A DNA stretch of 64,000 bases from SAR86 cluster bacterium (GCA_016779525.1 JADHNL010000002.1:4437-68436); one strand, 5' to 3'; shown: positions 2,856-62,764, numbered from the stretch's first letter. Numbers and translations are program-made. Notes: generated by a model from the sequence alone, not told the origin.

Positions 2856-5647
2856 TGTCAAAATCAATTGAGGAGAAAATCCTAGACAGCTTTAAATATG
2901 GAGGTAACTCAAACTACCTCGAAGATCTCTACCAAAAATACCTTTTAGACCCTAATGAAATAGACAGTGATTGGAAAAATTACTTTGATTCCATCCATAC
3001 AAATGTAGAAGAGAGAAATCACCAAGCTATTCAAGACCGGTTTAAGAATATCCGACTCAGCAGAAAAAGCCGCAATGAAGAGAAAACTGTTCTTGAGTCA
3101 CCAAAAAGTTCGGAAGTACAAAATTTAATCAATGCATTTAGAAGAAGAGGTCATCAGGTAGCAAAAATTGATCCTCTTCACCTAAGAAAAGAAAAAAATA
3201 TCTCAGACCTAAATCTTTCATTTCATAACTTATCTGAAGTTGATTTAGAAACATCATTTGCTCTTTCAAATTTTCAAGACGGAAAAACAATGACACTAAG
3301 TGAAATCAAGACCTCAATTGAGCAAACCTATACTTCAAATATTGGTTACGAATTCATGCATATTGTCGATAGCAAGATTCGTAGATGGTTCCTAGATAAA
3401 ATTGAGGGAAAAGCAAACCCATACGCTTTTACTGGCGATGAAAAAAAACAAATTCTCAAGCGTGTTGTTGATTCAGAAGGTCTTGAAAAATTTCTAGCTT
3501 CTAAATACCCAGGTGCAAAAAGGTTTGGTTTAGAGGGGGGAGAGTCCTTAATTCCACTCTTAGATACACTTATTGAAGATTTTGGTTCTAAGGGGGTAAA
3601 AGAAGTTTGTTTAGGCATGTCTCACAGAGGCCGTCTGAACGTTTTAATAAATGTAATGGGTAAGAAGCCTAGCGAGCTATTTTCAGAGTTCGCCGAGGAA
3701 CTAGATGCACATGATGCCAGAACAGGAGATGTAAAATATCACTTAGGATTTTCCTCCAATGTTCTAACAAGTGGCGGCGAAGTACACCTCTCACTTGGTT
3801 CAAACCCATCTCATTTAGAGATTGTCAATCCTGTAATTCTTGGCTCAGTTAAAGCTCGACAAGACAGAAGACAAGATGAGAAGAAGAAAAAAGTTGTTCC
3901 AATCTTAATGCATGGTGATGCGTCTTTTGCTGGGCAGGGTGTAGTAATGGAGATTCTTCAACTGTCGCAAACTAGAGCTTTTGGAGTTGGAGGAACAGTA
4001 CACATTGTTGTGAATAATCAAATTGGTTTTACCACTAGTTTGAAAAAGGATGCAAGGTCAACTGAATATTGTACAGATGTAGGTAAAATGATTGAAGCTC
4101 CAATATTGCATGTCAACGGTGATGATCCAGAGGCTTGTGTTACTGCAGCAAAACTGGCTGTTGAATTTAGAGATACTTTTAAACGAGATATTATTATTGA
4201 TTTTGTTTGTTATAGAAGGAGGGGTCACAATGAAAGCGATGAACCGTTTGCTACTCAACCTTTAATGTATAGCAAAATCAAATCAAAAAAGACGGTTACT
4301 GAACTTTATTCTGATAAGTTAATTTCAAATAACACAATAAGTATTGAACAATTTGAAAACTTCAAATCAAACTACAGAGCAAATATGGAAAAAGGAGAAC
4401 TGGTGGCATTATCGATGGCTTCAGACCCTGACCGATCTATGTATTTTGACTGGACCCCATACCTGAAACCTGATAAGAAAAAAACCTACCCAACAGCTGT
4501 TAGTATGGCGCAGCTTAAAGAGTCATTTAAATATTGTTTAGAGATCCCTGAAAGTTTGCAAATGCAAAAACAAGTTGAAAAGCTTTATCAAGATAGAACT
4601 TTGATGGCAAAAGGAGAGATGAGAATAAATTGGGGTTTTGCAGAAATGGTTGCGTATGCCACTTTACTACAGGATGGTTACCCAGTGAGAATGACTGGTC
4701 AAGATTCTAGAAGAGGAACATTTTCCCATAGACACTTAGTTGTTAAGGATCAAATCTCTGGTGAAGGTTTTGTTCCTATATCAAGACTAAATAAGGGCAA
4801 TAAAAAATTTGAAATATTTGACTCTTTATTGTCTGAAGAGGCTGTTCTTGGATTTGAGTATGGCTACTCCTCAACATGGCCAGAGGGCCTAGTAATTTGG
4901 GAAGCTCAGTTTGGGGATTTTGCTAATGTTGCCCAGGTAGTTATTGATCAGTTTATAGTCAGTGCTGAAACAAAATGGGGAAGACTTTCAGGGTTGACTA
5001 TGTTTCTACCTCATGGGTATGAGGGTCAAGGCCCTGAACATAGCAGTTGTCGATTGGAAAGGTTTTTACAGCAATGCGCATATGATAATATCCAAGTCTG
5101 CGTTCCAACATTGCCATCACAAATATTTCATTTGCTAAGACGTCAAACTGTAAACCCACAGAGAAAACCACTGGTTGTCTTGACACCAAAAAGTTTACTG
5201 AGAAATCCTCAAGCAACTTCAGAATTAGCTGATTTAACTAATGGCACATTCAAAAATATAATTGTCGATGAAACAAACAAGCAACCAAGAAAAGTTATTT
5301 TGTGCTCAGGTAAGGTTTATTTTGATATCTTAACTGAAATAAAAGAGAAAAAAATTGAAGATATTCAGCTTATAAGAGTTGAGCAACTATATCCTTTTCC
5401 TGAATCTGAGCTTATTGCCTGTACCAAAAAAATTAAAAGTAAAGATTTTTACTGGGTTCAAGAGGAGCCAGAGAATATGGGGGCCTGGTTAATGATACGC
5501 CACAGGATAGAAAAAGTTCTTAATGAAACGAAAAAAGGATACAAGCTGAGCTGTATTGCAAGAAATCCATCGGCAGCTCCAGCAGGTGGATATCAAAAAT
5601 ACCATCAAAAACGACAAAAAGAGATAGTTAGGAAAGCTTTACAGTAA
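2855..5647 (+). CDS. sucA: 2-oxoglutarate dehydrogenase E1 component
   Basis: 930 aa with a GTG start at the sdhB stop. Motifs YRRRGHNESDEP, WEAQFGDFAN, GYEGQGPEHSS. Confidence 0.97.
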   Translation: MSKSIEEKILDSFKYGGNSNYLEDLYQKYLLDPNEIDSDWKNYFDSIHTNVEERNHQAIQDRFKNIRLSRKSRNEEKTVLESPKSSEVQNLINAFRRRGHQVAKIDPLHLRKEKNISDLNLSFHNLSEVDLETSFALSNFQDGKTMTLSEIKTSIEQTYTSNIGYEFMHIVDSKIRRWFLDKIEGKANPYAFTGDEKKQILKRVVDSEGLEKFLASKYPGAKRFGLEGGESLIPLLDTLIEDFGSKGVKEVCLGMSHRGRLNVLINVMGKKPSELFSEFAEELDAHDARTGDVKYHLGFSSNVLTSGGEVHLSLGSNPSHLEIVNPVILGSVKARQDRRQDEKKKKVVPILMHGDASFAGQGVVMEILQLSQTRAFGVGGTVHIVVNNQIGFTTSLKKDARSTEYCTDVGKMIEAPILHVNGDDPEACVTAAKLAVEFRDTFKRDIIIDFVCYRRRGHNESDEPFATQPLMYSKIKSKKTVTELYSDKLISNNTISIEQFENFKSNYRANMEKGELVALSMASDPDRSMYFDWTPYLKPDKKKTYPTAVSMAQLKESFKYCLEIPESLQMQKQVEKLYQDRTLMAKGEMRINWGFAEMVAYATLLQDGYPVRMTGQDSRRGTFSHRHLVVKDQISGEGFVPISRLNKGNKKFEIFDSLLSEEAVLGFEYGYSSTWPEGLVIWEAQFGDFANVAQVVIDQFIVSAETKWGRLSGLTMFLPHGYEGQGPEHSSCRLERFLQQCAYDNIQVCVPTLPSQIFHLLRRQTVNPQRKPLVVLTPKSLLRNPQATSELADLTNGTFKNIIVDETNKQPRKVILCSGKVYFDILTEIKEKKIEDIQLIRVEQLYPFPESELIACTKKIKSKDFYWVQEEPENMGAWLMIRHRIEKVLNETKKGYKLSCIARNPSAAPAGGYQKYHQKRQKEIVRKALQ

Positions 5648-58098: not shown

Positions 58099-58888
58099 AG
58101 ATTTTTTAGCAAATCCACGAAGAGTTCGGCCTAAAACAATCTTTTATGGCAGCACAGGAGATGATATTCATAAAATTGTTTCAATCCTTGTGCTTAAACA
58201 CTTAAATCAAATATACAAAAAGGAAATTAAACTCACTCAAAGTTTGAACGATTTAGCGCTTCCTAATTTCTTCTTTTTAAAAAAAGAGGATGGGAAGTCA
58301 AATATCCCGATTGAGGAAATAAGAAAACCAAAAGAATTTCTTAACTTAAAAAGCACTTTCGGCAAAATGCTTTATATTCAAGGCGGACAAGATATTCGTG
58401 TCGATGGTTACAACGCTTTGTTGAAGACGGTTGAGGATTCAGATTCATCAACTTTTATCTGGATCTCCGCTGAAAATTTAAAATCAATTCCAGCTACTAT
58501 TTTAAGCAGATTTGATCAGGTAAAAATACCCTCTCCTAAAACAAGCAGCATCAAAGAATACTTTGAACAAAAAACAATAAAATTTGATGATAGAATGCTG
58601 ACTTTTTTAGCTCAAAATCCAAATGTAATGATGGTGGATGATTTTCACTTAGTGCTTAGAAGATTTGATGAGGTCTTGCAGTCAAAAGATATAGCTTCAA
58701 TTGAAAAATCTGAATTTAGACTATTCATTGACTACCTGATATTCAATAACAAGCAAGGGATACACTTAGACAACAAGCAAGCTTTAAAGAGGCTTAAGTT
58801 GTTAACAGAAGTAAAAAAATCTTTACTTTCAGCTCATAATCTTAGTCTTGATGTGATTCGGCTTAGAGTTACTTCTTGTCTCGGTTAG
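58082..58888 (+). CDS. holB: DNA polymerase III delta-prime subunit (short, divergent)
   Basis: 268 aa. YNALLKTVEDSDSSTFIWISAENLKSIPATILSRFDQVKIPSP aligns with E. coli ANALLKTLEEPPAETWFFLATREPERLLATLRSRCRLHYLAPP. tmk-holB synteny. Degenerate P-loop and no zinc module. Confidence 0.8.
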   Translation: MYQWNKDFLANPRRVRPKTIFYGSTGDDIHKIVSILVLKHLNQIYKKEIKLTQSLNDLALPNFFFLKKEDGKSNIPIEEIRKPKEFLNLKSTFGKMLYIQGGQDIRVDGYNALLKTVEDSDSSTFIWISAENLKSIPATILSRFDQVKIPSPKTSSIKEYFEQKTIKFDDRMLTFLAQNPNVMMVDDFHLVLRRFDEVLQSKDIASIEKSEFRLFIDYLIFNNKQGIHLDNKQALKRLKLLTEVKKSLLSAHNLSLDVIRLRVTSCLG

Positions 58889-60377
58889 GTCTTGGAAAAA
58901 AAGAGTTTTCTTGCTCAAATGCATAAGCAAAATTAATAATCTTTGCTTCTTCCCAAGCTGAGGCAAAAAATGATAGTCCAACTGGCAAGCCTTCAACGTA
59001 ATCAAGAGGAATTGTTATATGAGGGTAGCCGGCAACAGCAGATAAACCTCCATTCCCCCAAGAAAGCCCATTAAAGCCTCTAGAGTCGCCATTCTCATGA
59101 TCAGTTTTCCATGCTGGGTTTCTGGTTAGTCCTACCAGACCATCCAGGCTATCTCTCACTAACAAACCGTCTATTTGACTTTGAGCTCTAGATACAATTA
59201 ACTCAACGCCCTTTTGATACTTATCTTCATCTGTTGCTGACACGCTATCAAGAAAAATTTCATGGCCAAAGTGCTTTAAGACACTTTCAGAATTTTCTTC
59301 ATTAAAAGCAATTAAATCAGACAAGCTATTCATGCCCGATGCACTTGATTCTAGGTATTTATTAACTCCTTCCCTAAATTCATAAAGCAACACATAGTAT
59401 TCATTATCCCATTTGTAGTTGCTTTGGATATCAAAGTTAACTCTTAGCACTTCTGCGCCTAGTTTGCTTAGTATTGCTTCGGATTTTTCTAATAATACTT
59501 TTTCATAGTCAGAAACTTCTTCTGGAAAGATGAGGCCAATCCTTTTTCCAAGGAGCGATTGCTTACTCATGCTTAGCAGGGCTTCGAAATCATAGTTTTT
59601 TGGAATTTCTTTAGTAGCAGGGTCTTTAGGGTCTGTTCCAGATATGGCGTGAAGAACTGCAGCTGCATCACTGACACTTCTCGCCATTGGTCCGGCTGTA
59701 TCTTGCGTTTCAGAGATAGGAATAATTCCATCTCTACTTACTAAGCCAACTGTAGGCTTAATTCCAACAATGCCATTTATTGAGGCAGGACAGCTAATTG
59801 AACCATTTGTTTCAGTGCCTATTGCAACGGGAACAAGACCTTCAGCAACAACTGCTGCACTACCTGAACTTGATCCGCATGGGTTGAAGCTTAAGTCGTA
59901 AGGATTGTTAGTTTGCCCTCCATAACTTGACCACCCACTGGTTGAAGGGTTGCCCCTGAAGTTAGCCCACTCAGATAAATTTGCTTTACCAGCCAAGACA
60001 AAGCCCGAATTTTTTAGTAGTTTTACTATGTGTGCGTCATCTTTTGGGAAATTATCAAGCATTGCCAATGATCCTGCAGTATTTGCAAGACCTACCGAAT
60101 CAATATTGTCTTTAATTACGATTGGCACGCCTCGCCATGCCGACCTTCTGCTGTAAACGTAATTCTTATAAAGATCTTGATCAGAATAAAGGGCAATTAC
60201 AGCATTCACATCACCATCTGCTTCCTCTAAGTAACTTAGGTATTCTTTGTAAAAAGCTCTTTTGTTGTTTGAGCTATCAAGCAACTGTTTAAATTCATCC
60301 AGCGATAAGTCTTTAAAATTGTTTTCGCTGTATGCAAGGAAAGATATGAGGAAAAAAAAGATGGTTCTACTTAACAT
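58869..60377 (-). CDS. Secreted amidase-signature (AS) family amidase
   Basis: 502 aa. N-terminal signal peptide (MLSRTIFFFLISFLAYS), AS motif GSSSGSAAVVA, Ser-cisSer-Lys context (KDNID, TETNGSI). Confidence 0.88.
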   Translation of the reverse strand: MLSRTIFFFLISFLAYSENNFKDLSLDEFKQLLDSSNNKRAFYKEYLSYLEEADGDVNAVIALYSDQDLYKNYVYSRRSAWRGVPIVIKDNIDSVGLANTAGSLAMLDNFPKDDAHIVKLLKNSGFVLAGKANLSEWANFRGNPSTSGWSSYGGQTNNPYDLSFNPCGSSSGSAAVVAEGLVPVAIGTETNGSISCPASINGIVGIKPTVGLVSRDGIIPISETQDTAGPMARSVSDAAAVLHAISGTDPKDPATKEIPKNYDFEALLSMSKQSLLGKRIGLIFPEEVSDYEKVLLEKSEAILSKLGAEVLRVNFDIQSNYKWDNEYYVLLYEFREGVNKYLESSASGMNSLSDLIAFNEENSESVLKHFGHEIFLDSVSATDEDKYQKGVELIVSRAQSQIDGLLVRDSLDGLVGLTRNPAWKTDHENGDSRGFNGLSWGNGGLSAVAGYPHITIPLDYVEGLPVGLSFFASAWEEAKIINFAYAFEQENSFFPRPNRDKK

Positions 60378-60388
60378 AGAACCATCTT
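60351..60388 (-). terminator. Strong intrinsic terminator downstream of amtB, overlapping the amidase start codon
   Basis: The minus strand reads AAGAUGGUUCUA-UGUUAAG-UAGAACCAUCUU (12-bp perfect stem, 7-nt loop) followed by UUUUUUC. Confidence 0.75.
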
Positions 60389-60495: not shown

Positions 60496-61743
60496 CTAAA
60501 ACTCTGGGTAGGCTTCAACACCTATTTCTTCAGCATCCAACCCTTTCTTTTGAATTTCATCAGAGGCTCTAACTGGAGCTACCAAATTTAGTAAAAATAG
60601 GAACGCATAGGTCAATACAAACCCCCAGAGGACAATTGAAACAACGCCATACAGCTGAGAACCAAATGTTGCTTCCGCGTTGGTAAATGGCACAACCATA
60701 ACACCAAATATTCCAGCTGCTCCATGGGCGGAAATAGCACCCACCGGGTCATCAACTTTAAAGAATTGTTCGAATGCAACCAATGCTCCATAACAAATTA
60801 GACCGCCAATAGCTCCAATTAGAGTAGCTTCATAACCACTTGGAGATAATGGATCTGCAGTTATTGAAACTAGTCCTGATATGGCACCATTTAATGCATA
60901 AATGATGTTGGTTTTTTTGAAGAACACTCTGGCAACCACTAAACATGAAATAACACCTCCTGCAGCAGCCATATTAGTATTTAGGAATACTTGAGCTACA
61001 GCATTAGCGTTTTCAACGTCTTGTATTGCAAGTTGTGAACCGCCATTAAAACCAAACCAACCCAACCATAGAACAAAAGTTCCCAATGCAGCAATTGGAA
61101 TATTTGCACCGTAAAGTTTATTTGTTTCAGCTACAGGAAAAAGCCCATAACGCTTACCTGACACTTTGCCATATTTACCGAGTCTTGGACCAATAAATAT
61201 TGCTGCAGCTAAGGCACATGCAGCTCCAATTAAATGGACTGTTCCTGAACCAGCAAAATCTGAGTAGCCATCTTGTTTTAAGAATCCGCCACCCCAATTC
61301 CAGAAACCTTGCACAGGGTAAATGAAAGCTGCTATAAAGACGACCAAAGCAAAAAATGGCCATTGGTTCATTCTCTCAGCAACAGCACCCGATACAATTG
61401 AGCAAGCTGTGGCAACAAAAACTACTTGAAAGAAAAAATCAGCAGATTCTGAGTAGCCATAACCATCAACGACTGTATCAGCAGTAGTGCTTCCAAAACT
61501 AAAATCGTAAGCTGGCACGATTGTTCCAACGGGAACGTCGCCTGGGTACATTACCATGTACCCACATAATAAATACATGAAGCAAGCAATTGAGTAAAGG
61601 CCGATATTTTTTGTAACTATTTCAGCCGTATTTTTTCTTCTGACAAGACCTGCCTCAAGCATGGTAAAGCCTGCTGCCATCCACATGACTAAAGCAGCAG
61701 TTATCAACATATATAACGTATTTAAAGCGTATTCGATTTCCAT
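60496..61743 (-). CDS. amtB: Ammonium transporter (Amt family)
   Basis: 415 aa with 11 TM-like segments. Motifs DFAGSGTVHLIGA, WLGWFGFNGGS, ISAHGAAGIFG. Confidence 0.96.
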   Translation of the reverse strand: MEIEYALNTLYMLITAALVMWMAAGFTMLEAGLVRRKNTAEIVTKNIGLYSIACFMYLLCGYMVMYPGDVPVGTIVPAYDFSFGSTTADTVVDGYGYSESADFFFQVVFVATACSIVSGAVAERMNQWPFFALVVFIAAFIYPVQGFWNWGGGFLKQDGYSDFAGSGTVHLIGAACALAAAIFIGPRLGKYGKVSGKRYGLFPVAETNKLYGANIPIAALGTFVLWLGWFGFNGGSQLAIQDVENANAVAQVFLNTNMAAAGGVISCLVVARVFFKKTNIIYALNGAISGLVSITADPLSPSGYEATLIGAIGGLICYGALVAFEQFFKVDDPVGAISAHGAAGIFGVMVVPFTNAEATFGSQLYGVVSIVLWGFVLTYAFLFLLNLVAPVRASDEIQKKGLDAEEIGVEAYPEF

Positions 61744-61752
61744 ATTAGCCCT

Positions 61753-62349
61753 TTAAAATGATGCTCCGACAGTAAAAAATAGCCCGTCCTCATCTTCTAG
61801 TCCTGATGCACTATCGGCCGTAAATGAGCTATAACCCAAAGACGCGTCATATTCACCTAAAGAAAATCCATAACCGACTAGAAAGTTAGATCCTGTGTCT
61901 TCGTAATCTCCATAAGAAAATGAGAAATCACCAAAACCATATGATATGTCGTAATAGTCACCAAATTCATCACCAAGGTAGTATGAGAAACCCACACCGG
62001 CATATGACAACGCTACGTAAATCTCTGAAAAATCGGCATCCGTTACCTCAGGGTAAGCATAATTGATGTAACCAACATCCCATCCAAGACCACCATCGGT
62101 TTCACCCGCGTAGCCTATATAGGTATCAAGTTCCAGACCTGCACCACCAAAAGCAACATTAGAACCCCAAGTACCAGCATAAAAGCCACCTTCAGAGCTA
62201 TAATCAAATCCACCACTGTATGCGGGAGCATCCATAGTTTGGGACATCCCTCGCCAGAAGTAATTTGATGAAAATGAAAAGTTTGAGGACACACCTGCAA
62301 ACACATTCAACGTTAGAAATATGGCTAAAGCCATCATTCCTTTTTTCAT
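61753..62349 (-). CDS. Small outer-membrane beta-barrel protein (TIGR02001/Gcw_chp-like) co-transcribed with amtB
   Basis: 198 aa. Signal peptide, SSNYFWRGMSQT and aromatic/Gly-rich alternating strands, terminal F. Only 9 nt upstream of amtB. Family assignment is from memory. Confidence 0.78.
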   Translation of the reverse strand: MKKGMMALAIFLTLNVFAGVSSNFSFSSNYFWRGMSQTMDAPAYSGGFDYSSEGGFYAGTWGSNVAFGGAGLELDTYIGYAGETDGGLGWDVGYINYAYPEVTDADFSEIYVALSYAGVGFSYYLGDEFGDYYDISYGFGDFSFSYGDYEDTGSNFLVGYGFSLGEYDASLGYSSFTADSASGLEDEDGLFFTVGASF

Positions 62350-62418
62350 AAAAACATCTCCTTATTAAAAATAAGTGTGTTAAGAATTGAAAAAGGGCTA
62401 AACCTTCATAGTTTAGTA

Positions 62419-62471
62419 GCCGCGTTCCTTCAGCTTTCGCTTACTTCCGTCCTCGAAGAGGATGAACGATT
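62419..62471 (-). ncRNA. glnA RNA motif (glutamine riboswitch) in the porin-amtB leader
   Basis: The minus strand reads AUCGUUCA-UCCUC-UUCG-GAGGA-CGGAAGUA-AGC-GAAA-GCU-GAAGGAACGCGG. This gives P1 CGUUC/GAACG, two GNRA/UNCG-capped stems, and the conserved ACGGAAGUA and GAAGGAACG junction strings of the glnA motif. Confidence 0.8.
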
Positions 62472-62478
62472 AGACGCT

Positions 62479-62556
62479 GCTCCTTTTTTACCATGGAGTA
62501 TGGTTTAACTTTTAACCCATGTTATATGGGCTCCTTTTAACCCATGGAGTATGGGG
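62479..62556 (-). promoter_or_regulatory. Three tandem mini hairpin / H-type pseudoknot units in the porin-amtB leader
   Basis: On the minus strand: CCCAU-ACUCC-AUGGG-UUAAAA-GGAG; CCCAU-AUAAC-AUGGG-UUAAAA-GUUA; CCAU-ACUCC-AUGG-UAAAAAA-GGAG. In each unit the loop 4-mer is complementary to the 4-mer after the A-rich linker. Confidence 0.6.
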
Positions 62557-62604
62557 ATAAAAAATATCTTCTTTATAAACACCATTTATAAATTAACATA
62601 AACT

Positions 62605-62633
62605 AAATTAATGTTGTAAGATGTAAATGTCAA
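62605..62633 (-). promoter_or_regulatory. Candidate sigma-70 promoter of the porin-amtB leader
   Basis: On the minus strand: TTGACA (62633-62628), a 17 nt spacer, then TAATTT (62610-62605). This predicts a leader of roughly 250 nt. Confidence 0.4.
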
Positions 62634-62764
62634 TAAAAAATACCGAGTATTTGATGGATCCAGAAGATGCAGAAAAAATTGATTTTGCTAATCAAAGGGT
62701 AGCTGTGCTGGGTGGTGGAGATGCAGCTATGGAAATAATCTTATACCTAAATAAAACCTGTTGA
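62627..62764 (+). pseudogene. Possible relic of a TrxB/AhpF-like pyridine-nucleotide-disulfide oxidoreductase (45 codons)
   Basis: The short ORF MSIKNTEYLMDPEDAEKIDFANQRVAVLGGGDAAMEIILYLNKTC contains an isolated NAD(P)H-binding VAVxGGGxxAxE..LYL motif. The rest of such an enzyme is absent. Confidence 0.3.

Follow-up and report, generated by a model that had tools for sequence, protein, structure and literature searches.

A glutamine riboswitch aptamer upstream of a porin–ammonium transporter operon in the marine SAR86 lineage

We analysed a stretch of 64,000 nucleotides (64 kb, the window) from a SAR86 cluster bacterium (GCA_016779525.1, JADHNL010000002.1:4437-68436), in which a putative glutamine riboswitch lies on the minus strand in front of an operon for an outer-membrane porin and an ammonium transporter (amt). 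The first gene (61753..62349, minus strand) encodes a putative outer-membrane porin of the TorF/Gcw_chp type with 198 amino acids, a signal peptide and a C-terminal Phe (PF09694, E 5e-20; TIGR02001, 99 bits), and the second (60496..61743, minus strand) encodes an ammonium transporter of the marine subtype with 415 amino acids (TIGR03644, 540 bits with a cut-off of 514; PF00909, E 8e-87). The porin stop at 61753 and the amt ATG at 61743 leave a gap of 9 nt, and the operon ends in a strong intrinsic terminator (60358..60388, minus strand) with a 13-bp stem followed by 8 U (-17.4 kcal/mol, z-score -7.3). The 5′ untranslated region (UTR) of the operon is about 250 nt long and holds the aptamer (62419..62470, minus strand), with 73 nt between the 3′ end of its P1 stem at 62423 and the porin ATG at 62349. 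An earlier note on this DNA had described an outer-membrane barrel gene, amtB starting 9 nt behind it and an RNA element about 70 nt before the barrel-gene ATG, all of which the protein families and coordinates given above bear out.

When the full window was scanned with Infernal against all 4227 Rfam families, the sole match above the gathering score was the glutamine riboswitch (glnA RNA, RF01739), which was aligned over model positions 1-53 of 53 and scored 67.0 bits (gathering score 35; E 1.1e-12). The minus strand from 62470 to 62419 reads AUCGUUCAUCCUCUUCGAGGACGGAAGUAAGCGAAAGCUGAAGGAACGCGGC, and the conserved junction strands ACGGAAGUA and GAAGGAACG can be read straight from this sequence. 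The covariance-model alignment of the window aptamer to RF01739 contains no non-canonical pairs, and the minimum-free-energy fold of the 52-mer gave a three-stem junction consisting of P1 CGUUC/GAACG (62464-62468 paired with 62423-62427), P2 UCCUC-UUC-GAGGA and P3 AGC-GAAA-GCU. Both the glnA-type assignment and the three-stem junction put forward in the earlier note were therefore recovered; its second stem, UCCUC/GAGGA, also stood, while the UUCG loop assigned to that stem proved to be UUC (3 nt). Of the two Rfam families named in that note, RF01739 was significant and RF01704 (glutamine-II, Downstream-peptide motif) stayed below its gathering score of 33, with 15.2 bits (E 0.22) over nothing but the junction string that it has in common with RF01739, which rules out membership of the glutamine-II class.

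The stems of the aptamer were also kept in 17 orthologous SAR86 leaders, where 94% of cells were paired, compared with 28-51% in slid controls. Both inner pairs of P2 covaried across these leaders, changing on both sides, and P1 was invariant. In addition, RF01739 scored above the gathering score in 16 of 16 SAR86-type loci tested (58-71 bits) and in 0 of 4 loci of the sigma-54/glnK type. Judged by its score, fold and conservation, 62419-62470 (minus strand) is almost certainly a genuine aptamer of the glutamine-I (glnA RNA) class. It is a functional-looking member of that class, and glutamine binding and control of expression are predicted for it.

Homologous porin-amt operons occur with and without the aptamer, and the upstream regions of both forms were compared. 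A metagenome scan with the porin alignment yielded at least 80 loci, of which only those with at least 250 nt of upstream sequence (65) were counted. Among the loci listed, the sigma-54 motif TGGCAY-N5-TTGC was found within 400 nt upstream in 0/21 aptamer-bearing loci and in 44/44 aptamer-less loci, 43-104 nt before the porin ATG in the latter; glnK stood between porin and amt in 2/20 of the former and 39/40 of the latter. The Rfam scan of a sample confirmed that the aptamer-less loci were not misses of the search pattern. For the window itself, the earlier note had seen neither glnK nor a sigma-54 promoter, in agreement with our results: tblastn with GlnB and GlnK found no PII homologue in the 64 kb, and no -24/-12 (sigma-54) motif was found in the leader. 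The comparison lends strong support to the view that a riboswitch and a sigma-70 promoter were swapped in for the NtrC/sigma-54 and GlnK hardware at the porin-amt operon, and we consider it quite likely, from these sequence comparisons, that a genuine glutamine riboswitch controls porin-amt in place of sigma-54 and GlnK.

Three points weigh against this interpretation. Owing to shared ancestry among the compared loci, as few as one or two evolutionary events may underlie the clean split; two aptamer loci (here and below, compared loci carry L numbers), L152 and L153, keep glnK while each having two pseudoknot units (described below), two aptamers and no sigma-54 motif, so the two systems are not strictly exclusive; and the absence of PII refers to the 64-kb window, from which the PII/NtrC status of the whole genome cannot be read. 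The earlier suggestion that the riboswitch replaces PII/NtrC control is supported for this operon. A search of the literature on nitrogen regulators encoded by SAR86 genomes yielded no usable information. The sigma-54 form was itself widespread: TorF porin-glnK-amtB behind a canonical sigma-54 promoter was present in L146, L149-L151 and L154-L203, as a conserved operon of marine proteobacteria. This widespread gene order suggests that the TorF-family porin may serve ammonium uptake across the outer membrane.

Upstream of the aptamer, the leader starts from a predicted sigma-70-type promoter. Its -35 box, TTGACA (62628..62633, minus strand), is invariant as TTGAC(A/T) in the 17 orthologous leaders, and is followed after a variable spacer of 15-17 nt by the -10 region (ATTAAT/TAATTT; 62605..62612, minus strand), which belongs to a conserved (T)ATTAATTT block in the aptamer-bearing leaders. 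The transcription start of the porin-amt operon was inferred from these promoter boxes. Between the predicted -10 and the first pseudoknot unit lies another conserved block, TTTATAAA-TGGTG-TTTATAAA (62572..62592, minus strand), which is present in 17/17 orthologous leaders and kept as TTATAAAT-N-GTGTTTATAA in all leaders of group 1. Each half of this TTTATAAA-N5-TTTATAAA block is itself palindromic, making it a candidate operator or 5′-terminal hairpin. At the other end of the leader, the Shine-Dalgarno sequence AAGGAG of the porin gene (62358..62363, minus strand) is invariant in the 17 leaders, with 8 nt between it and the ATG. The TTGAC within GGTTTGACC was rejected as an internal promoter, as no orthologue has a -10 box at a usable distance; so were small upstream open reading frames (ORFs), namely AUG-GGU-UAA inside unit 2 and the conserved CUAUG after the aptamer, which keep neither frame nor length across orthologues.

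Between the promoter and the aptamer, three tandem 25-nt units were found on the minus strand, each a candidate mini-pseudoknot. Unit 1 (62531..62555) reads CCCAU A CUCC AUGGG UUAAAA GGAG, unit 2 (62506..62530) reads CCCAU A UAAC AUGGG UUAAAA GUUA, and unit 3 (62480..62504) reads ACCAU A CUCC AUGGU AAAAAA GGAG; the loop and tail of unit 2 differ from those of units 1 and 3 and are still complementary. Drawn as a compact H-type pseudoknot, each unit has stem 1 (CCCAU/AUGGG), a 1-nt linker, stem 2 (CUCC/GGAG) and a 6-nt A-rich loop. The units are near-invariant in the 17 leaders, among which aptamer stems, linkers and proteins have diverged and porin identity falls to 60%; variation is seen in the 1-nt linker and in the A-rich loop. 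Among 20 distinct units, 98.9% of cells pair, compared with 24-43% in slid controls. Four of the nine unit pairs change on both sides, including three of the four in stem 2, and these changes go back to a small number of independent events (unit 2 versus units 1 and 3; L012; the G-U variants). Stem 2 occurs as UAAC/GUUA in unit 2, as CCCC/GGGG in one SAR86 glutamine-synthetase leader and as the wobble form CUCC/GGGG in three leaders, and the outermost stem 1 pair is C-G in some units and A-U in others. A sequence-blind pseudoknot descriptor matched 74 sites in about 2.3 Mb, 68 of them just upstream of glutamine aptamers. No Rfam family matched the repeats, the best being a viral pseudoknot model at chance level (E 8.2). 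Given the lack of an Rfam hit and of loop nucleotides for a pocket, a preQ1-I-like reading was discarded. Viral contigs held 73 pattern matches to the unit, none with the A-rich linker and a nearby aptamer, and these were taken as chance. One to three tandem units were also observed upstream of SAR86 aptamers in L005, L009, L012, L028, L067, L070, L077, L087, L108, L122, L124-L141 and L152.

The same repeats could instead be DNA operators, with palindromes CCCAT-N5-ATGGG bound by a protein that provides the real nitrogen control while the riboswitch fine-tunes it. Their near-invariance beside diverged aptamer stems and proteins fits protein-binding sites better than RNA helices, they follow one another every 25-26 bp just downstream of the promoter, and the palindrome centre, which corresponds to pseudoknot loop position L1, is where they vary. 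A DNA palindrome, however, has no need of the second complementarity. Without exception the 4-nt loop has its complement in a 4-mer 6 nt past the hairpin, in 21/21 distinct CCAW-N4-5-ATGG hairpins that lie no more than 120 nt upstream of an aptamer compared with 21/266 elsewhere, and it does so through the sets CUCC/GGAG, UAAC/GUUA and CCCC/GGGG as well as the G-U variant CUCC/GGGG. Moreover, the G-U pairs and the A-rich linker exist on the transcribed strand only, and the units lie downstream of the conserved promoter and are hence transcribed. We regard operators as an improbable explanation, and the mini-pseudoknot array as a candidate new RNA motif.

A second structure that may involve these units is a candidate long-range helix of 8 bp, formed by the 5′ strand GUUAAACC (62502..62509, minus strand) and the complementary 3′ strand GGUUUAGC (62397..62404, minus strand; GGUUUGAC in most orthologues). 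This helix (GUUAAACC with GGUUURRY) encloses the aptamer and appeared in the minimum-free-energy folds of 4/4 leaders. In the 17 leaders 97.8% of its cells are paired, and the four positions that vary always do so in a pairing-compatible way. Since the GUUAAACC strand shares nucleotides with the tail of unit 2 and with stem 1 of unit 3, the pseudoknots and the long-range helix would be mutually exclusive. SAR86 leaders with several aptamers carry AGUUAAAAU ahead of the first one, and their last aptamer is followed by a local hairpin, GUUAAAC-N8-GUUURAC.

The region 3′ of the aptamer is conserved as CUAUG...AAGG-UUUGAC-CCUUU(U)n, followed by a U-rich stretch, AAGGAG and AUG. Within it lies the CCCUUUUU tract (62390..62397, minus strand), a candidate occluder of the translation start that is complementary to codons 2-4 (AAAAAAGG, 62339-62346) and to the AAGG of the Shine-Dalgarno sequence. 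The tract is conserved and pairs with the coding start in the minimum-free-energy folds of 4/4 leaders, and in the same folds the U-rich stretch pairs with the Shine-Dalgarno sequence. Across the 17 leaders the unpaired probability of the Shine-Dalgarno sequence was 0.0-0.5.

The earlier note had instead taken a hairpin with a U-run at 62389..62421 (minus strand) as a possible expression platform, which would make the leader a transcription attenuator with this hairpin, or a shorter AAGG/CCUU hairpin and the U-run, as a glutamine-dependent terminator. A hairpin followed by CUUUUUC does lie directly 3′ of the aptamer, and in several orthologues the U-run that follows GGUUUGACCC extends to 8-9 U. 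The hairpin is nevertheless weak and lineage-specific: its energy is -6.7 kcal/mol (z-score -0.77), as against -17.4 kcal/mol and -7.3 for the operon's real terminator, 37 of 200 shuffles fold at least as well, and the terminator scan did not report it. Its pairs are not conserved in the 17 leaders (52% of cells paired, slid controls 41-43%), the U-run shrinks to only 3 U in L108, L128 and L132 (CCCUUUAG or CCCUUUG), and the U-run is complementary to the coding start instead. Thus the hairpin exists, no more stable than shuffled sequence, and energy, terminator scan and lack of conservation together rule it out as a conserved terminator; we hold attenuation in any of these forms to be a doubtful explanation.

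We therefore propose the following model, in which the switch would act on translation. The sigma-70-type promoter would give rise to a leader of about 250 nt with the aptamer upstream of porin-amt, and glutamine would be sensed directly by the mRNA, taking over the job of NtrC/sigma-54 (and GlnK) in the SAR86 lineage. At high glutamine the porin-amt operon would most likely be off, and the output step would more probably be translation initiation than intrinsic termination. The CCCUUUUU tract would pair with codons 2-4 and the Shine-Dalgarno sequence and so close the translation start, while the GAAGG copies in the aptamer junction and the linker, together with the long-range helix, would compete for CCCUUUUU/CCUUU. 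The three mini-pseudoknot units in the same transcript are probably part of the device. An OFF switch, in which glutamine turns the operon off, seems to us the probable design, and we give a translational output about an even chance; both were argued from what the riboswitch replaced and from the same leader type occurring before glutamine synthetase. We further put forward, tentatively, a composite device in which a hitherto undescribed RNA module of two to three tandem mini-pseudoknots and the long-range helix might act with the aptamer on porin-amt expression and be a second switch layered on glutamine sensing, the two jointly replacing NtrC/sigma-54 and GlnK during SAR86 genome streamlining.

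Several observations tell against this model. The sign of regulation is argued solely on physiological grounds and on the nature of the control that was displaced, and the one glutamine riboswitch with an in-vivo test, that of Synechocystis gifB, is an ON switch (PMC6212724). The long-range helix shows only one-sided changes, of the G-U to A-U type, with zero compensatory double changes, and covariation offers no check on the pairing between CCCUUUUU and codons 2-4, as the Met-Lys-Lys-Gly N-terminus constrains the coding strand of the pair. When the aptamer was enforced or P1 blocked in silico in the 17 leaders, the accessibility of the Shine-Dalgarno sequence and AUG was unchanged and no coupling appeared, in a thermodynamic model that cannot represent pseudoknots or folding during transcription and says nothing on the sign of regulation.

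The opposite sign also has to be weighed, namely that the aptamer is real and acts as an ON switch, glutamine opening the translation start so that porin and Amt would be made when nitrogen is replete, for instance for ammonia efflux or low-affinity uptake. Besides the in-vivo precedent (PMC6212724, PMC6698751), glnA-RNA-associated genes tend to drop on nitrogen starvation according to Weinberg et al. (PMC2864571), and a start region that is predicted closed by default, as the low Shine-Dalgarno accessibility in the 17 leaders implies, is typical of ON designs. In homologous operons, by contrast, the riboswitch takes the place of a sigma-54 promoter of the NtrC type, which is switched on when nitrogen is scarce, and the same SAR86 leader type precedes glutamine synthetase, where repression by glutamine is sensible logic. 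The leader also has no anti-Shine-Dalgarno next to P1, unlike the cyanobacterial (CGCCUC...GAGGCG) and SAR86 small-ORF (CAUCU...AGGAGAUG) designs. On these grounds we consider an ON switch rather unlikely, and retain an OFF switch as the preferred sign.

The distribution of the aptamer was surveyed by scanning its core pattern in one genome per GTDB species, which returned at least 119 stretches. The matches listed fall in cyanobacteria and, in large numbers, in two marine groups, Gammaproteobacteria (SAR86 and others) and Alphaproteobacteria (Pelagibacteraceae, SAR116 and others). The genes following the aptamer, again among the matches listed, were amt behind tandem aptamers in Alphaproteobacteria (at least 21 loci), small cyanobacterial proteins (at least 31), a 477-amino-acid protein (at least 17), glutamine synthetase (at least 16) and porin-amt (at least 8), and also gltB, gltD, a TonB-dependent receptor and small SAR86 ORFs. 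The order aptamer, TorF porin, amt was found in at least 8 loci, including SAR86 MED-G79, whose porin is 81% identical, and SAR86 AG-349-I13; these two have the closest leaders and operons among the matches listed, and the leader and operon also recur in other metagenome-assembled genomes (MAGs) of SAR86 or Gammaproteobacteria. An identical Amt protein is encoded on the MAG GCA_016778165.1 and three other assemblies. The gammaproteobacterial context proposed in the earlier note can accordingly be narrowed to SAR86.

Other arrangements of the aptamer were also seen. In six SAR86 loci (L019, L027, L037, L106, L107 and L118) aptamers precede small ORFs of about 53-71 amino acids, of which those in L019, L106 and L107 are mutually related, and a PYYL motif lies at or near the C-terminus of those in L019 and L037, the two shown in full. 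The anti-Shine-Dalgarno of these leaders follows directly after P1, a layout as in cyanobacterial gif leaders, and the small ORFs could by analogy be counterparts of glutamine-synthetase inactivating factors. In marine Alphaproteobacteria (L046, L059, L071, L092, L094, L104, L119 and others) glnB ends about 45 nt before the tandem aptamers that precede glnA, so PII and the glutamine riboswitch coexist there. In L145, an IMES-1 RNA (RF02034, 133 bits) was found at 3475-3600, on the minus strand of the locus and just 3′ of amt, beside a SAR86-type porin-amt operon with three aptamers; the 64-kb window has no IMES-1 match.

Regarding the surroundings of the operon, the genes beyond it downstream are an amidase and then holB-tmk-mltG-acpP-fabG, a gammaproteobacterial gene order. 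The ATG of the amidase gene (58869-60377), at 60377, lies inside the loop of the porin-amt terminator hairpin, and L001 has the amidase broken into two ORFs (275 and 233 amino acids), which may indicate decay in some strains. On the other side, a 45-codon ORF (MSIKNTEYLMDPEDAEKIDFANQRVAVLGGGDAAMEIILYLNKTC*) at 62627-62764 (plus strand) has a weak likeness (E about 1e-3) to the NAD(P)-binding segment of GltD/thioredoxin-reductase-type enzymes and looks like a gene remnant. The similarity of L001, which has an identical Amt, to the window ends at the -35 box, and another neighbourhood (ClpB, infA) lies beyond; the porin-amt cassette thus adjoins a rearrangement breakpoint.

To our knowledge, glutamine riboswitches have been tested in cyanobacteria only. 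Parts of the present picture are already on record. Weinberg et al. (2010) listed ammonium transporters, PII, glutamine synthetase and glutamate synthase as genes associated with glnA RNA, for which they entered the distribution "Cyanobacteria, marine" (PMC2864571). Klahn et al. (2018) described the gifB ON switch in Synechocystis, at which time the marine metagenomic copies were of "unknown taxonomic affiliation" and their regulatory sign was not known (PMC6212724). A long-read study of 2025 recorded RF01739 in SAR86 MAGs, and a porin with a glutamine riboswitch in a Pelagibacter MAG (PMC12379486), and Smith et al. (2013) speculated that riboswitch-like leaders control Amt paralogues in Pelagibacter, which is without GlnB, GlnK, GlnD and NtrBC (PMC3870248). 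Any novelty implied by the earlier note is therefore overstated: the glnA-RNA/amt association, RF01739 in SAR86 and the Pelagibacter Amt idea were all published, and the motif, said there to have been described mainly in cyanobacteria and marine reads, runs, in our genome scan, throughout SAR86, SAR11-like and SAR116 genomes. Class, gene association and general idea had thus all been reported before, and a description of the detailed SAR86 architecture was not found in the literature searched; the SAR86 porin-amt context is common in public genomes and metagenomes and barely described.

With this locus and its relatives, many of the marine-metagenome copies, a large share of them, can be assigned to SAR86, SAR11-like and SAR116 bacteria, and the SAR86 mechanism is probably non-cyanobacterial. 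The loci also offer a natural experiment, with one porin-amt operon in two forms, a sigma-54 promoter with glnK or a sigma-70 promoter with glutamine aptamers, and the short leader makes the replacement hypothesis concrete and testable by reporter and probing assays. The question bears on nitrogen sensing by some of the most abundant heterotrophs in the ocean.

When compared with known systems, the 25-nt units, if read as pseudoknots, would resemble preQ1-I riboswitches and luteovirus frameshift pseudoknots in having a 5-bp stem 1, a 4-bp stem 2 in which the loop pairs with the 3′ tail, and an A-rich linker of 6 nt that could sit in the minor groove of stem 1. They differ from these in an L2 of 0, which leaves no room for a ligand pocket, in belonging to no Rfam family, in forming two to three tandem copies and in lying only upstream of SAR86 glutamine aptamers. 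With the Synechocystis gifB leader the SAR86 leader shares the aptamer class, the P1/P2/P3 junction, ACGGAAGUA and GAAGGAACG, and its place in the 5′ UTR of a nitrogen-metabolism gene. The SAR86 host, however, is a heterotroph, and a porin and an ammonium transporter are controlled instead of a glutamine-synthetase inactivating factor; its start codon is 73 nt off, it lacks the P1-adjacent anti-Shine-Dalgarno of gifB, it has the three upstream mini-pseudoknot units, and the sign of its regulation is probably opposite.

In the marine Alphaproteobacteria (SAR11-like, SAR116; PMC2864571), streamlined marine heterotrophs, the aptamer also precedes a marine-type amt (45-50% identity), whereas their leaders have two aptamers, a different linker (CGGAUCUUA...), no porin gene and no pseudoknot units. 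'Candidatus Pelagibacter ubique' (PMC3870248) is likewise a streamlined marine bacterium with Amt genes that have no NtrC/GlnK partners and a proposed leader-RNA control; it differs in being an alphaproteobacterium, in that its leader RNAs were not identified as glutamine aptamers, and in that the absence of PII is genome-wide there and refers to the 64-kb window here. Finally, the NtrC/sigma-54 (porin-)glnK-amtB operons of the 44 marine loci have a homologous porin and amt and likewise match ammonium uptake to nitrogen status. Those operons have TGGCAY-N5-TTGC upstream, glnK between porin and amt, and no aptamer, while the window operon combines a sigma-70-type promoter with an aptamer and lacks glnK.

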